Source: a virus (lineage: Duplodnaviria; Heunggongvirae; Uroviricota; Caudoviricetes). Taken from it: DNA of 29,078 nt. The position numbers and the translations under genes are program-made. The stretch lies in IMG/VR virus record IMGVR_UViG_3300042879_005260, positions 93,514 through 122,591 of that record; one strand, 5' to 3'. The notes under the pieces were generated by a model. That model was not told the origin of the DNA and did not search any database. It saw nothing but the letters and a program-made list of their open reading frames with translations. This document shows, in pieces, positions 329 to 7,839 of this stretch. The number at the start of each line of letters is the position of its first letter. Positions within the stretch are counted from its first letter, which is position 1.

Positions 329-370
329 ATAACAATAAATACCAAAATAAAAGTTTTTGTCAATATTGAA

Positions 371-379
371 ATATTTATA
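371..379 (+). promoter_or_regulatory. ATATTTATA motif, putative phage-specific promoter
   Basis: The same motif lies shortly upstream of gene starts (0 to about 30 nt) at 371, 810, 1382, 3602, 9946, 22046, 23628, 26895, 27660 and 28260. Variants occur at 3073, 7839, 11337 and 19066. A minus-strand copy at 7072-7080 precedes the minus-strand aminotransferase. Confidence 0.6.
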
Positions 380-383
380 AAAT

Positions 384-791
384 ATGAAAAATCTTATAAG
401 AAAAATATTAAAAGAAGAATTTGATGATTTTGATTGGGCTGAAGAATTGGTTGGTAACACCAAACAATTTTCACCTGCTGAAGGATTTCTTTATGACATT
501 ATGCCCAATTTAAAGATGATTCCTTCAAAAAATAACCCAGGTTGGATGTTTTATAAGGATAAAAGCGGGGTTACTTTAATGGCGGATGATGTGGATAGAG
601 ATAAAAAAAATCCGATTTTATTAGTTGATTATGATGAAATTTGGTTAAAATTACGTCAAGAATTTGGCCTTAATGAACAAGAAATCAGTAATTTATGCGT
701 GCGTATGCTGGAAATAACCCATAAACGAAAGGTATTGACAGCTATTCACCGTTCCTGGAATAGATCCTGGAAGGCTGGAAATAACCCATAA
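384..791 (+). CDS. Hypothetical protein with MKNLIRKILKEE leader; paralog of 823..1224
   Basis: 135-aa ORF. Its 3' end (LEITHKRKVLTA) is encoded by the first 36-nt repeat. Confidence 0.85.
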   Translation: MKNLIRKILKEEFDDFDWAEELVGNTKQFSPAEGFLYDIMPNLKMIPSKNNPGWMFYKDKSGVTLMADDVDRDKKNPILLVDYDEIWLKLRQEFGLNEQEISNLCVRMLEITHKRKVLTAIHRSWNRSWKAGNNP

Positions 792-809
792 ACGAAAGGT
801 ATTGACCTG
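707..809 (+). CRISPR. CRISPR-like mini-array 1 (2 repeats, 1 spacer), no cas gene in window
   Basis: Repeats at 707-742 (GCTGGAAATAACCCATAAACGAAAGGTATTGACAGC) and 774-809 (degenerate 3' end CCTG). The spacer 743-773 is 31 nt. Confidence 0.55.
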
Positions 810-822
810 ATATTTATAAAAT

Positions 823-1224
823 ATGAAAAATCTTATAAGAAAAATATTAAAAGAAGAATTTGATGATTTTGGTTGGGCTGAAGAATTGATTGGTAACACC
901 AAACAATTTTCACCCGCTGAAGAATTTTTGTATGAAATTATGTCCAATTTAAAAATGGTTCCTTCTGAAAATTATCCAGGTTGGATGTTGTATAAAGATG
1001 AAAGTGGACTAAATTTAATGGCGGATAATGTGGATAGAGATAAAGAAAATTCGATTTTATGGGTTGATTATCACCGCATTTGGTCAAAATTAAATCAAGA
1101 ATTTGCTCTTAATACTCAGGAAATCAAAGACTTATGTATGCGTATGCTGGAAATGACCCATAAACGAAAGGTATTTACAGCTCATCATTGCAACACGACT
1201 TCAATCATCAGGAACTGGAAATGA
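823..1224 (+). CDS. Hypothetical protein, tandem paralog of 384..791
   Basis: 133-aa ORF that aligns with 384..791 up to LEMTHKRKVFTA, then has a different tail. Confidence 0.85.
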   Translation: MKNLIRKILKEEFDDFGWAEELIGNTKQFSPAEEFLYEIMSNLKMVPSENYPGWMLYKDESGLNLMADNVDRDKENSILWVDYHRIWSKLNQEFALNTQEIKDLCMRMLEMTHKRKVFTAHHCNTTSIIRNWK

Positions 1225-1381
1225 CCCATAAACGAAAGGTATTTACAGCCAAAGAGGGGTTTGTGAGCGCTCAACGGCAGCTGGAGATGACCCATAAACG
1301 AAAGGTGTTGACAGTCCATGACGCCTCGTTTTCATCTTGAACGCGGCTGGAGATGACCCATAAACGAAAGGTGTTGACCTG
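1146..1381 (+). CRISPR. CRISPR-like mini-array 2 (4 repeats, 3 spacers)
   Basis: 36-nt repeats at 1146-1181, 1214-1249, 1280-1315 and 1346-1381. Unique spacers of 32, 30 and 30 nt. The repeat ends GCTG/CAGC are self-complementary. Confidence 0.65.
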
Positions 1382-1394
1382 ATATTTATAAAAT

Positions 1395-2462
1395 ATGAAA
1401 AACCTTATAAGAAAAATATTACTTCAAGAAAACGTAGGAATTTCTTTTGCTGTTAGGAATTGGGCAAAGGTTATTTATGAACTTTTATCGAATTTACCAA
1501 TTTCTGAAAAAAGACTTATTGTCAATTCTGAAGAATATCCTGAACTATTTGAAGACTTTTCTTTTGATTATGCGGTTATCGATTTTAATGATTGGAGTAA
1601 TGGTTATCTTACAAAAACTTCTGGTTATGATTCAAACGGTTATTATGTTGTTCATATCATGGTTTTGAATAAATTTAGGAACAATCCTTATATGTTAACA
1701 ATTTTAAATCACGAATTAAAACATGCATACCAAGATTGGCAACGTCAAAGTAAAGGATACCCAAGTATTGATCAAAATAGAGAAAACATTAATATCTACA
1801 CTGAAGATTTTATTAAAGTTTTAAAAAATAGAATTAAGATAAATCCGATTTTCAAAGAAGTTTTGAAAGGTTACTATATACTTTCAGATTTAGAACTAAA
1901 TGCTTTTTTAGAAAATGTTTATGATGGTGATAAATTAAGTCCTTATAAGAAAATGGTTTTTGATTTAATAAATTATGATGCCGTTAGGGCAACTTATTAT
2001 GAGAACCCAGGGATTCTACAAAAAGATTGGGAAACTTTGTTGTCCCTGAACATTCCTTTTTTAAAAAAATATAAAAAATATGAAGACTTTTTAGTTGCAT
2101 CTACAAAATATTTTAACAACAGGAGTCAAGAAATACTTCGTAAAATAAATAAAATGGAATATGTTCACCGTGATAAAGGTTTAAATGAACAATTATTAGG
2201 GGAACAGATAGCTTGTCATTTAATATCACCCAAAGGTGATGGTAATGGCGGATATATTGACAATCAAAAAGCTTTAGAAATCGTTAAAAAAATTGAATCT
2301 GATACTAAAAGTTACCAAAGATTAAGTGACAAAGAAAAAGAAATGTTTAGAAGTACAATTAAAAATTTTAAAAATGATATTCTAAGAGCAGACACTAATT
2401 TAGACACTATAGATACATATCTCCATAAATTGGCAAATTTATTTAAATGTTATCCGTTATAA
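1395..2462 (+). CDS. Putative zinc metallopeptidase-like protein (HExxH) with MKNLIRKIL leader
   Basis: 355 aa, motif ILNHELKHAYQ. The promoter and first 9 codons match those of 384 and 823. Confidence 0.6.
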   Translation: MKNLIRKILLQENVGISFAVRNWAKVIYELLSNLPISEKRLIVNSEEYPELFEDFSFDYAVIDFNDWSNGYLTKTSGYDSNGYYVVHIMVLNKFRNNPYMLTILNHELKHAYQDWQRQSKGYPSIDQNRENINIYTEDFIKVLKNRIKINPIFKEVLKGYYILSDLELNAFLENVYDGDKLSPYKKMVFDLINYDAVRATYYENPGILQKDWETLLSLNIPFLKKYKKYEDFLVASTKYFNNRSQEILRKINKMEYVHRDKGLNEQLLGEQIACHLISPKGDGNGGYIDNQKALEIVKKIESDTKSYQRLSDKEKEMFRSTIKNFKNDILRADTNLDTIDTYLHKLANLFKCYPL

Positions 2463-2464
2463 AT

Positions 2465-2495
2465 TTTGATATTTGTTAAAATTTTATTACATTTG
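2465..2495 (+). promoter_or_regulatory. Bacteroidota sigma-A-type promoter (TTTG-N19-TAnnTTTG)
   Basis: TTTG at 2465-2468 and TACATTTG at 2488-2495. Similar sites: -7 boxes at 7108, 9277 (TTTG 9254), 15257, 18262, 19731 and 20638 (TTTG 20615). Confidence 0.65.
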
Positions 2496-2499
2496 TGAC

Positions 2500-3048
2500 A
2501 TGAAAAAAATCAAACTTTGGTGGAAATTTGAAGGTCGGTACTATTATAGTGATTTTATCAAAGGCATTAAAAACTTATGGAAATGGTTTCCTGTTATTTG
2601 GAAAGATCGTGATTGGGACGACCACTTCATTTGGGAAATACTAATGTTTAAAATCAAAAATCAAGCGAAGTATATTGGTGATAGAGATTTTCACACCAGA
2701 GCAAAACGTGATGCTGAAATCATGATGACATGTGTTCGTTTAATGGAAAAAGTAAAAGAAGAACATTATCAAATGGAATACATGAACTATTGTGAAGATG
2801 AGTTTGATTTTATTGATGCTGACACTCCAGGTTACAAACAACTTCAGATAACTGAAATCTCAGAAAATTTTGATGAGTACTTTAAGAAAAGACAAACCGC
2901 TTATCGTAAAGTAATGAAAAATGGAGGTTCATTTGGTAATGATAGTAAAAAACACATCGCCATGAGTATGGGACACCTACAACATGATAGGGCTAATAAA
3001 ATATTATTCACTCTTTTGGAAAGAAATATCGCCTGTTGGTGGGATTAA
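2500..3048 (+). CDS. Hypothetical phage protein (WFPVIWKDRDWD motif)
   Basis: ORF 2473..3048. The start is moved to the ATG at 2500, just downstream of the promoter. Confidence 0.8.
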   Translation: MKKIKLWWKFEGRYYYSDFIKGIKNLWKWFPVIWKDRDWDDHFIWEILMFKIKNQAKYIGDRDFHTRAKRDAEIMMTCVRLMEKVKEEHYQMEYMNYCEDEFDFIDADTPGYKQLQITEISENFDEYFKKRQTAYRKVMKNGGSFGNDSKKHIAMSMGHLQHDRANKILFTLLERNIACWWD

Positions 3049-5267: not shown

Positions 5268-5987
5268 GTGAAAAATTATTTAAATGAAGATAATGAATGG
5301 TATGATGAAATTATTGACAATTTTATTGATTTACCTTTAGTTGTAGTTGTCGACAGTGGTGAATATTATCCTGTATATCTTGATGCGATGTATGAATTAG
5401 AAATCACAGGGTTAAATAAAGAAACATATAATTATATCGAAATGCAGGGGCCTGGTACTTATATTGAAGATTTATTACATCAAGAGTTACCTATTTTAGG
5501 AATTCCTGAAAATGGTGATATTTGTTATCTCTACCCTAAAAAGAAAAAATCACCCAGATATTCTACTTACATTTATAAATTAAAAAATATTAAAACAAAA
5601 AAAGAATTTATAATAAATGAAAAAGGGTTTAAACCCTACCAAATAAAAAACCGAATAATTGAAAATAATAATTTTGATTGGGTTGATGAACTTTTAATAA
5701 AAGATGACCCATTTTTACCTAATAAATTATATATCATTAGAGAACACAATATTTTAATTAAAATTGTTGGCGTTTTTAAAGAAAATAAAAAAATTAATGA
5801 CGCCGAAGATGATGGTTGGCGAGCTACTTTTCGAGCATTCAACCATAGGCCAAAAAAATGGGAACCTGAAGAAAGAATAGAAAGAAATTGGGCAAAAAAA
5901 TTAATTCAAGAAGGACATTGGGAACTTATTTCCGAAGAAGAAGCTAAAGAAATATTTGGTCATATGCGTGGTTATCACGAATTTTAA
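5268..5987 (+). CDS. Hypothetical protein with N-terminal (YLNEDNEW) and internal (IIENNNFDWVDE) acidic-Trp motifs
   Basis: 239 aa, GTG start. The motif resembles EEFDDFDWAEE of 384/823. Confidence 0.75.
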   Translation: MKNYLNEDNEWYDEIIDNFIDLPLVVVVDSGEYYPVYLDAMYELEITGLNKETYNYIEMQGPGTYIEDLLHQELPILGIPENGDICYLYPKKKKSPRYSTYIYKLKNIKTKKEFIINEKGFKPYQIKNRIIENNNFDWVDELLIKDDPFLPNKLYIIREHNILIKIVGVFKENKKINDAEDDGWRATFRAFNHRPKKWEPEERIERNWAKKLIQEGHWELISEEEAKEIFGHMRGYHEF

Positions 5988-7051
5988 ATTCTATCAAAAT
6001 AATCCACAAAATCTTCATGCTTAACAGCAACCGAAATTCTTGAATACTTATCAGAAACATCGGAATCCAATGAAAATTTATTTAAAGGAACTGATGATAT
6101 TTTATGTTCTAATAATTGTTCATAACTCAACGTAACAATACAAAAAGGTCCCACAGGTTTTGATGGATATTCCTCAAACAAAAAACCTCTTTTTTCCAGA
6201 TAATCAATATTTTTTTGAATATCGGACGTTGTTTTCTCTTTATATTTTTTAACAAACCTGTACCCCGTATTTAAAACTTCATCAACAACCAGTTGTGGTA
6301 AGTTGGAAATAGAATTGTACTTATAGAGGGAACGAATTTTCATTGCTTCAAATAAACTGGTGTTTTTGGTTGCAACATAACCAACACGAAAACCCGATAA
6401 ACCCAAAGATTTTGAAAACGAAGAAACAATAATTACATTATCGTAAAATAATTCATAAATTTTATCATCTTCAGAATTAAAAAGATAATAATAAGGTAAA
6501 TCCAATATAATAGTTGTACCTATTTTTTTAGCTCTTTCAACAAATTCCTTTAACTCCTGTAATTTTGGTGCCCAACCTGTTGGATTCGAAGGTATACATA
6601 ACATATAAACATCGTTAGGATGTAAAAAAACATCTTTTAAATTAAAATCATTAAAAGATTTTATTTCTTTGTTATGAGTTTTTAAAATTTTATTCCAAGA
6701 ACCCCAGTGATATCTTGGTATTCTAAATGTTTCGTTATAAATCGAGTTTATAGTTAAATCAAGGGCTGCCATCCCACCTGGTGTTATTAAAACATGGTGT
6801 TCGGGTAAATGAAATTTACTTTTGATAGTTTTTATTAAATCTGTATCGCCGTTATTGGGACCGTAATGTTGTAAAGATTTTAAATTAAAATCAAAATCAC
6901 CAACAACAGAATTAAGGTCAATTGTGGTAACATCCATAACTCCACGATGGAGTTTTAAATATTTGCCACCACTTTCGACTTCTAATTTATTAATATCTTC
7001 ACCAATTTTAACTATAGAAGAATAAGTAACGGGTGGTCTGGAAACTATCAT
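5984..7051 (-). CDS. PLP-dependent aminotransferase, class I/II
   Basis: Motifs ITPGGMAAL, PSNPTG, DLPY and SFSKSLGLSGFRVGY (PLP lysine). Confidence 0.85.
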   Translation of the reverse strand: MIVSRPPVTYSSIVKIGEDINKLEVESGGKYLKLHRGVMDVTTIDLNSVVGDFDFNLKSLQHYGPNNGDTDLIKTIKSKFHLPEHHVLITPGGMAALDLTINSIYNETFRIPRYHWGSWNKILKTHNKEIKSFNDFNLKDVFLHPNDVYMLCIPSNPTGWAPKLQELKEFVERAKKIGTTIILDLPYYYLFNSEDDKIYELFYDNVIIVSSFSKSLGLSGFRVGYVATKNTSLFEAMKIRSLYKYNSISNLPQLVVDEVLNTGYRFVKKYKEKTTSDIQKNIDYLEKRGFLFEEYPSKPVGPFCIVTLSYEQLLEHKISSVPLNKFSLDSDVSDKYSRISVAVKHEDFVDYFDRI

Positions 7052-7137: not shown

Positions 7138-7839
7138 ATGGAAAAAATGGAAAACTTTAATAGTGTATGTTATGTAGCACGTATTAATGAAATCAAACCA
7201 ATACCAGGTGCTGACAACATTGAACAAGCAGTTGTTGGTGGGTGGAATGCTATCATACAAAAAGGACAATATGCTGAAGGTGGGTTGGTAGTTGTTGCTA
7301 CTACTGATGCTGTTATCCCTCAAGAACTTTCAGATGCAATAAATGTCACTAACTACTTGCGTAAAGGTCAAAGAGTGCGTACTGTTAAGTTGAGAGGAGT
7401 TTATTCTGAGTGTTTAATCATGCCTTTATCACTACTCGTTGGTAGATCTAAGGTTATTAAAACCACAAAGGAAGGTGATGACATGATGGAAAATCTTGGT
7501 GTTTACAAGTACGAACCACCAATTAAACAAATAACATTATCTTCAGGTAAAAGAATTCGTTTTACTGAAAATGAGGCATTTAGAGTTTATTATAAGTTTC
7601 CAAATGTTAAAAATGTACCTGGTATTTTTAATGAAGAAGATAATGTACAAATCACTCGTAAAATACACGGTACCAACGCCAGATTTGGCATTGTTAAAAA
7701 AGTAAAATTAACATACTTAGATAATGTTAAACTATTTTTAAATCACAAATTTGGGTTAGGTGGTGACAAATGGAAATGGTGTGAATACGAATTTTATATT
7801 GGTAGTCATAATGTTGTTAAAGATATTCAATCTTTGTGA
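7138..7839 (+). CDS. RNA ligase (Rnl2/DRB0094-like), N-terminal half
   Basis: N-terminal OB/tRNA-binding-like segment (ARINEIKPIPGADNIE) and nucleotidyltransferase motif I (RKIHGTNARF). Ends soon after GSHNVVK. Confidence 0.8.
   Translation: MEKMENFNSVCYVARINEIKPIPGADNIEQAVVGGWNAIIQKGQYAEGGLVVVATTDAVIPQELSDAINVTNYLRKGQRVRTVKLRGVYSECLIMPLSLLVGRSKVIKTTKEGDDMMENLGVYKYEPPIKQITLSSGKRIRFTENEAFRVYYKFPNVKNVPGIFNEEDNVQITRKIHGTNARFGIVKKVKLTYLDNVKLFLNHKFGLGGDKWKWCEYEFYIGSHNVVKDIQSL

Follow-up and report, generated by a model that had tools for sequence, protein, structure and literature searches.

The window analysed here is a stretch of 29,078 nucleotides that corresponds to bases 93,514-122,591 of IMG/VR record IMGVR_UViG_3300042879_005260 (122,591 bp; G000 in what follows). 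It belongs to a large lake-water phage (Caudoviricetes), the whole record having 29.6% G+C and being ~51% complete according to CheckV. [quoted passage not shown] A sequence-only reading of the same DNA had described six 36-nt repeats arranged as cas-less mini-arrays with type VI-B-like repeats, and had suggested that the phage may use them as guides for a host Cas13b or as decoys. Here, we show by comparison with the rest of the record, with related loci and with real Cas13b repeats that the arrays are genuine, cas-less and of CRISPR type, that they grow out from the 3' end of a phage gene present in several copies, and that their repeat is not a canonical Cas13b repeat.

Two arrays that begin within phage genes

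The six repeats lie on the plus strand at 707-742, 774-809, 1146-1181, 1214-1249, 1280-1315 and 1346-1381, which confirms the sequence-only reading, and a degenerate 32-mer pattern that matches 6 times in the window finds 0 matches in 100 shuffles. They fall into two groups: array E1 (707-809) contains one 31-nt spacer, and array E2 (1146-1381) contains three, of 32, 30 and 30 nt. The features of the locus, including open reading frames (ORFs), are as follows:

384-706, plus strand: leader-family gene 1, body of 107 codons (MKNLIRKILKEEFDDF...LCVR); its ORF as called extends to 791 via repeat 1 and the spacer
707-742, plus strand: E1 repeat 1, comprising the last base of a Met codon and codons L-E-I-T-H-K-R-K-V-L-T of gene 1
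743-773, plus strand: E1 spacer, 31 nt, GC 0.45; it shifts the frame, leading to the ORF stop TAA 789-791 within repeat 2
774-809, plus strand: E1 terminal degenerate repeat, which ends in CCTG and, together with base 810, forms TGA 808-810 in the repeat-1 reading frame
823-1145, plus strand: body of leader-family gene 2; called ORF 823-1224, with its stop TGA 1222-1224 within E2 repeat 2
1146-1381, plus strand: array E2, repeats 1146-1181, 1214-1249, 1280-1315 and 1346-1381 (the last terminal, with CCTG; TGA 1380-1382)
1182-1213 (32 nt, GC 0.41), 1250-1279 (30 nt, GC 0.57) and 1316-1345 (30 nt, GC 0.53), plus strand: E2 spacers
1395-2462, plus strand: next ORF, 355 aa, starting 13 nt past array E2; only the start region and the first 12 residues (MKNLIRKIL...) are common with the leader family

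The fold-back that had been noticed by eye is real in the four internal repeats, which fold at -5.0 to -7.9 kcal/mol with the pairs GCUG/CAGC, AAAU/AUUU and CC/GG. In the terminal repeat of either array a CCTG end replaces CAGC and the fold is lost, in agreement with the earlier description of the last repeat as degenerate. Because this trailer repeat plus one base makes an in-frame TGA (808-810 and 1380-1382), it looks like the original end of the gene, and may represent just that. The four spacers show no relation among themselves or to any other part of the phage, and their measured GC values equal the earlier hand counts (0.45, 0.41, 0.57 and 0.53), far above the phage. Rfam places no family on the window, a result that is uninformative here because true Cas13b arrays are unmatched as well.

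The most unusual feature of the locus, and one that goes beyond the sequence-only reading, is the fusion of gene and array. The leader gene is present in multiple copies and encodes ~107 aa, and repeat 1 constitutes its last 12 codons: ORF 384-791 and ORF 823-1224 read this repeat as L-E-I/M-T-H-K-R-K-V-L/F-T and then continue into the spacer. Genes 1 and 2 of the window are paralogues with 77% protein identity. A profile search gathers 272 database proteins of the leader family with lengths of 115-177 aa, a spread that is as predicted by read-through into differing spacers. The gene body is under purifying selection (ratio of nonsynonymous to synonymous substitution, dN/dS, ~0.42 over 171 pairs) and its indels are whole-codon. 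The AlphaFold model shows a confident alpha/beta fold, with a predicted local distance difference test score (pLDDT) >90 for residues 30-115, and its final helix, residues 98-113, extends into the repeat-coded residues. No relative of the leader protein was found in Pfam, PHROG, the PDB folds (best Z 4.2) or the ESM Atlas.

All arrays that were found, via the repeat or via the protein, lie behind this gene family. Among the loci of the near subfamily that were found by the protein body alone, a search that is unbiased with respect to the repeat, 11 of 11 carry arrays; even L084, a locus with just 40% identity in the protein body, has the 15-nt core for T-H-K-R-K unchanged. A second subfamily at 28-33% identity (L086, L087, L090, L091, L093, L110 and L158) has arrays of the same 36/30 geometry that start at the same codon with a different repeat; this repeat is of the GTTGGATGAGGT...CACAAC type, coding WLDEVYNLRGVT (W-L-D-E-V-Y-N-L-R-G-V-T), and the match ends near base 1700-1850 of each locus. 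Right after array D of the record lies an array-less paralogue (L025:2936-3318, G000 82936-83318) that reads ...V-H-K-R-Q-V... with other codons and ends in a tail that is longer and unrelated; this copy has either decayed or never acquired an array. The synonymous sites of the H-K-R core that are fixed in the array-bearing copies have changed in this paralogue. As a count of unchanged synonymous sites is biased for loci that were themselves found by the core, we argue constraint from the protein-found loci and the array-less paralogue. Together, the second subfamily and the recoded paralogue indicate that the 36 bases are doubly constrained, as codons and as nucleic acid, and that the fusion is an old one. 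This double constraint, on helix codons and on a repeat, is a clean natural case of overlapping codes.

Two further observations concern the surroundings of these genes. In L086, a 58-kb viral contig, three tRNA genes (2443-2725, minus strand) lie ~0.6 kb downstream of the distant-subfamily array. A conserved start module of ~40 nt, ATATTTATAAAATATG followed by the KNLIRKIL codons (window 369-420, 808-860 and 1380-1430), heads the leader-family genes, and the same module heads two unrelated 355-aa ORFs that follow arrays, at window 1395-2462 and at G000 67551-68618 (from 68618 downward, minus strand); it looks like a portable gene front end. The 355-aa ORF of the window has no informative Pfam or PHROG match. 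A large segmental duplication of two tandem gene-array loci was considered and rejected, as the downstream 355-aa ORFs share 12 residues only.

Polarised spacer turnover in the record and its relatives

Across the whole record, counting both strands, there are seven arrays with a total of 22 repeats and 15 spacers, which the sequence-only reading, made on the window, had not included. All seven arrays directly follow members of the one gene family, at the same codon, and in most cases another gene with the same start follows 13 nt later; of the full-length paralogues in the record, 7 of 8 bear arrays. For comparison, we used related loci from IMG/VR and from lake contigs of the Joint Genome Institute (JGI) with identical arrangement, together with the phage relative G408 (317,983 bp, 96% complete), which has two arrays. 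The relatives combined yield 59 unique spacers of 28-32 nt, exactly 30 nt in 45 of the 59, and terminal repeats are degenerate in the arrays of the record and of the relatives alike.

Homologous arrays have their trailer-side spacers in common; what sets them apart is extra spacers at the end facing the gene. Array C2 of the record has three spacers, of which L018 and L013 hold only the third; L064 has two extra spacers ahead of the single spacer of array D; and L011 has a new spacer ahead of one that it has in common with L009. In these sister arrays (C2, D and L009/L011) growth is polarised at the gene end in the manner typical of CRISPR adaptation. For the window arrays the one sign of growth is the order of repeat variants in E2, where repeats 1 and 2 are one variant and repeats 3 and 4 another, as expected for unit addition at the gene end.

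The sequence-only reading had itself named an alternative to a CRISPR array, namely that repeat and spacer are kept in frame as 22-aa protein repeats. This alternative fails. Of the 45 thirty-nt spacers, 25 contain an in-frame stop, compared with 22.6 +/- 3.3 in shuffles, and the length of 14 of the 59 spacers is not a multiple of 3, so that the frame is broken. The spacers are non-coding, and they are not protein repeats.

Spacer composition also stands apart from that of the phage. The record's 15 spacers have a mean G+C of 0.456, whereas 30-mers of the genome have a mean of 0.295, and the spacer value was never reached in 20,000 draws of 15 random 30-mers. The extreme of the GC-enriched set is a spacer at L020:9533-9561 (minus strand), from a relative of 108 kb: its G+C is 69%, against ~30% for the phage. 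As to an origin of the spacers in the phage itself, no second copy was found within the phage genome. The E1 spacer is present in lake-water DNA runs X1-X4, which come from separate studies, and exact pieces that span E2 spacers occur in such runs too, spacer 1 in X1, X3 and X4 and spacer 3 in X2; this lake-run evidence comes from Logan contigs, which are too fragmented at the multi-copy locus for unit gain or loss to be read.

It is the combination of gene-end spacer additions, shared trailer-side spacers and spacers that are not kept open as protein that identifies these arrays as genuinely CRISPR-type. They are also cas-less, as had been supposed: Cas13a, Cas13b and Cas1 are found neither in the record nor in G408. 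In place of a non-coding AT-rich leader with nearby cas genes, their "leader" is a translated-looking gene under purifying selection.

Comparison with Cas13b repeats and with known systems

How closely does the phage repeat resemble those of type VI-B? As a calibration we collected real Cas13b loci, comprising the Bergeyella gene (839 bits, NCBIfam NF038190) and further loci recovered from sampled genomes of Flavobacteriales (7 of 401) and Bacteroidales (23 of 401). We extracted 18 distinct true Cas13b repeats and built a covariance model from them, with held-out true repeats as control. All 18 are 36 nt long with a 66-bp period, in line with the earlier statement that type VI-B uses 36-nt repeats and ~30-nt spacers. 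Common to them are a terminal stem of four pairs, the G10-U27 wobble, an inner stem of six pairs that covary and a U-rich loop that is invariant at T18 and T19 and nearly so at T20.

Compared with type VI-B as represented by Bergeyella zoohelcum (L051) and by Cas13bt3/Cas13X.1 (PMC7613696), the phage arrays have the same 36-nt repeat and 30-nt spacers, a four-pair terminal stem (GCUG/CAGC or GUUG/CAAC), the wobble and most of the 3' half. The phage repeat keeps 10 of 12 invariant nucleotides (9 of 12 in array E1, where position 10 is A), and the positions common to it and the 18 true repeats are G1, T3, G4, G10, G21, G25, T27, A32, C33 and A34. It departs from type VI-B in its A-rich loop, where true repeats have the invariant U18-U20, and in its inner stem, with 2-3 pairs as opposed to 6; the phage also lacks a cas13b gene, a non-coding leader and a leader-repeat hairpin. 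With the covariance model, held-out true repeats score 26-53 bits (best copy per locus; degenerate copies lower) and the wrong strand 8-12, whereas the phage repeats reach 10-16. A canonical Cas13b repeat was rejected on this score and on the absence of the U-rich loop and the 6-bp inner stem. The VI-B-like label of the sequence-only reading thus holds for size, ends and 3' half and does not extend to canonical membership of the Cas13b family. Since the label "Cas13b-type repeat" fails when set against real Cas13b repeats, the partner of these arrays has to be sought without that assumption.

Three smaller points bear on the same comparison. Of the paired cells, 69 of 320 are G-U, and for this reason the gene-sense strand pairs far better than the antisense strand. 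The window repeat agrees with Cas13bt3 at 14 of the 23 nucleotides stated in PMC7613696, and with a full Cas13bt repeat string at 23 of 36 positions; all 23 stated nucleotides agree with this string, and the Cas13bt ends given in the sequence-only reading are in accord with them, whereas a literature search for the string itself gave no match. Finally, two diverged Flavobacteriales Cas13b loci, L131 (G447) and L132 (G421), which score ~400 bits with NF038190, have repeat ends GCTG...CACAGC rather than GTTG...CACAAC, placing the GCTG/CAGC ends of the phage within natural VI-B variation.

Virus-borne mini-arrays without cas genes have been described in the Saccharolobus portogloboviruses SPV1/SPV2 and in prophages (PMC11656645). 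Similar to the arrays reported here, they are short, with 1-4 spacers, have no cas genes and presumably depend on Cas proteins of the host. Their spacers, however, mostly match related viruses and their repeats are host-identical, whereas for the phage arrays no host counterpart or target was found; in addition, this phage has many arrays per genome, each starting within a protein-coding gene. RNA anti-CRISPRs (Racrs), which are solitary repeat units (PMC10651486), offer a second likeness, as the repeat-like RNAs encoded by the phage could likewise occupy a Cas nuclease. Racrs are single spacerless repeats right behind a promoter and have been reported for all CRISPR types except type VI (PMC10651486), in contrast to the phage repeats, which carry 1-4 spacers, overlap coding sequence and lie inside or behind an ORF, with a promoter scan below chance.

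Surveys of viral and plasmid CRISPR parts have recorded solitary repeats and systems of every type but type VI (PMC10651486, PMC11656645), and in the literature we came across no array with a first repeat that belongs to a protein-coding gene. Viral mini-arrays and solitary repeats are already known; new are the two window arrays, the calibrated test that places the repeat outside the Cas13b family, the second subfamily, whose repeat differs, and the cas-free near-complete relative.

What the arrays may do

Which process builds these arrays, and to what end? Our first choice, held tentatively and at somewhat less than an even chance, is that a host nuclease of the Cas13b family is bound by the repeat-bearing RNAs, which would serve as competing or decoy guides in a form of counter-defence, and that the arrays are built in trans by a host adaptation complex. 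Strict 30-nt inserts, repeat duplication and polarity speak for a Cas1-Cas2 ruler at work in infected cells, and the integrating enzyme would be the host's because the phages have no Cas1. Most likely, the host complex would add 30-nt spacers at the gene-proximal repeat and duplicate that repeat in doing so. One candidate integrator comes from Flavobacterium, where a plastic type II-C Cas1-Cas2 supplies Cas13b arrays with spacers in trans: in F. columnare, the II-C Cas1 serves a VI-B array that lacks its own cas1 despite differing leaders and repeats, recognises mainly the leader-distal GTTGT end and takes many spacers from the host genome (PMC8092290). That array resembles those of the phage in gaining 30-nt spacers without its own cas1/cas2, via a plastic adaptation complex, and in its leader-distal repeat end (GTTGT, or GCTGT, on the opposite strand). 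It is chromosomal and sits beside cas13b, whereas the phage arrays lie in a lytic-type phage genome and we can only infer their integrator. The GC-rich spacers fit a capture of host DNA; they would come from non-phage DNA, probably that of the host.

A scan for promoters and terminators gave signals at or below chance. The lack of such a signal between gene and array makes co-transcription likely, and the arrays, having no promoter or terminator of their own, are probably transcribed together with the gene. Host VI-B arrays need a leader-repeat hairpin to stop leader-derived RNA from sequestering Cas13b (PMC13187072). In the phage no leader-repeat hairpin is found and repeat 1 folds freely in its upstream context; standing after non-spacer sequence, it is formally equivalent to the leader-derived extraneous CRISPR RNA of type VI-B (PMC13187072). 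The proposed decoys, which would bind the host nuclease in competition with its own guides, would include a "guide" formed from the phage gene itself ahead of repeat 1. Viral repeat RNAs are known inhibitors (PMC10651486). It is the free repeat 1, the many copies per genome and the lack of targets that put decoys or competitors first among the functions we considered. If the RNAs do engage a Cas13-family nuclease, this would be the first viral counter-measure against, or hijack of, RNA-targeting CRISPR by array mimicry, and it would also show a lytic phage genome as a substrate for host adaptation enzymes.

Several observations weigh against decoy RNAs for a Cas13b-family nuclease. The loop is A-rich (positions 18-20 are AAC) and the inner stem has only 2-3 pairs in place of 6, so that binding of the phage repeat by any Cas13b is no more than a proposal; the 10-16 bits of the covariance model, with a best E of 0.33, are near the wrong-strand level; and covariation in 32 unique phage repeats is not above shuffle controls. 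A host array with the phage repeat was not found in 185,579 species genomes, using exact 26-mer, relaxed 18-base and 19-base two-subfamily patterns, which gave single chance matches only, plus the contig L158. That contig, 1.8 kb long, phage-like and binned with a Flavobacterium metagenome-assembled genome, is the sole hint to the host. A single scan of JGI metagenomes returned only gene-anchored phage arrays and none outside the phage gene context, and no RNA run is listed among the public runs that hold the phage. The true host may be absent from sequenced collections. The known viral mini-arrays, moreover, have repeats identical to those of their hosts (PMC11656645). Finally, a pure decoy needs no spacers, yet a strict spacer length is kept and the window spacers recur across lake samples.

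On a rival reading the arrays would be working mini-CRISPRs that load a host Cas13b-like nuclease with guides against competing phages, plasmids or host transcripts, comparable to the archaeal virus mini-arrays that exclude related viruses. We regard such retargeting as doubtful. The spacers are unique and of strict length, the trailer-side ones are retained in relatives and the window ones recur in the lakes as if their content mattered, the arrays are still acquiring spacers, and a precedent exists (PMC11656645). The spacer-target check proposed in the sequence-only reading, however, came back empty throughout. For none of the 59 spacers was a protospacer found in the phage itself or in its relatives (0.32 Mb); the window arrays have none in cultured phages (INPHARED) or plasmids (PLSDB); among 401 Flavobacteriales genomes that were sampled, array E2 gave chance-level partial matches only; and a search of IMG/VR with the central 22-mers of the four window spacers returned nothing. 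In addition, the repeat is identical to no known host repeat, and Cas13 activation usually leads to a dormancy that aborts infection, which would harm the phage.

Alternatively, the likeness to Cas13b may be superficial and the partner an undescribed or non-Cas13 RNA-guided protein, such as a miniature type V, a TnpB-like protein or a new type VI branch, encoded by the host or by that half of the phage for which there is no sequence. This repeat family, found only behind the leader phage gene, is not recognised by the Cas13b repeat model, and the record is only 51% complete, so there is some room for such a partner. We nevertheless consider it unlikely. The geometry, the paired ends and the G10-U27 wobble match type VI-B, and the 96%-complete G408 bears arrays without a TnpB-type TNB domain, Cas13a, Cas13b, Cas1 or a large ORF with two HEPN motifs. 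The TNB domain is likewise absent from G000; a purpose-built Cas13b hidden Markov model run with filters off found nothing in the phage records, nor was a large ORF with two HEPN motifs found; and a peptide-pattern search of limited sensitivity confirmed no Cas13b relatives in IMG/VR. In one distant-subfamily phage of 281 kb, G409, an ORF of 421 aa does contain a TNB zinc-ribbon domain of Cas12f1/TnpB type (86 bits) and lies ~1.5 kb upstream of a gene of the leader family (L162, G409:C1:231452-234655). Its proximity speaks for a partner of this kind, but that gene bears no array, and both G409 family genes seen are array-less.

Could the arrays be without function? Off-target spacer integration at repeat-like sites is known from laboratory work, and a repeat-like gene end that is occasionally targeted by host Cas1-Cas2 might accumulate arrays as neutral scars. 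The trailer repeat, which keeps an in-frame stop and resembles the original gene end, and the spacers without targets are compatible with this. We think it quite unlikely, as arrays sit on 7 of 8 full-length paralogues in the record and the arrangement holds across two subfamilies at ~30% protein identity whose repeats have co-diverged. Moreover, the 15-nt core is kept in L084 and recoded in the array-less paralogue, which argues for selection on the repeat as nucleic acid.

Very improbable, and largely refuted by the stop counts and frame-breaking spacer lengths given above, is a protein-level device in which repeat and spacer (66 nt, 22 codons) diversify the C-terminal tail while the nucleic acid as such does nothing: it is true that the ORFs continue past repeat 1 into the spacer, which alters the tail with each array, and that database homologues range from 115 to 177 aa, but in-frame stops are not depleted and the frame is lost after the first spacer in both window arrays.

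A wider and more speculative reading, about which we are sceptical, builds on the fusion itself. The gene family may have evolved its last twelve codons as a working CRISPR repeat, capturing host spacer integration for many gene-anchored, co-transcribed arrays, with the repeat co-diverging with the protein over deep time into two subfamilies. If true, the arrays would form a distinct, virus-specific branch of CRISPR biology, and the partner might be an undescribed type VI relative, or the small protein itself might take part.

Further along the window, a class I/II aminotransferase gene (5984-7051, minus strand; Pfam PF00155, E 9e-23) lies on the opposite strand among phage genes, adjoined by a PHA02142-type protein with an oligonucleotide/oligosaccharide-binding (OB) fold (7138-7839, plus strand).

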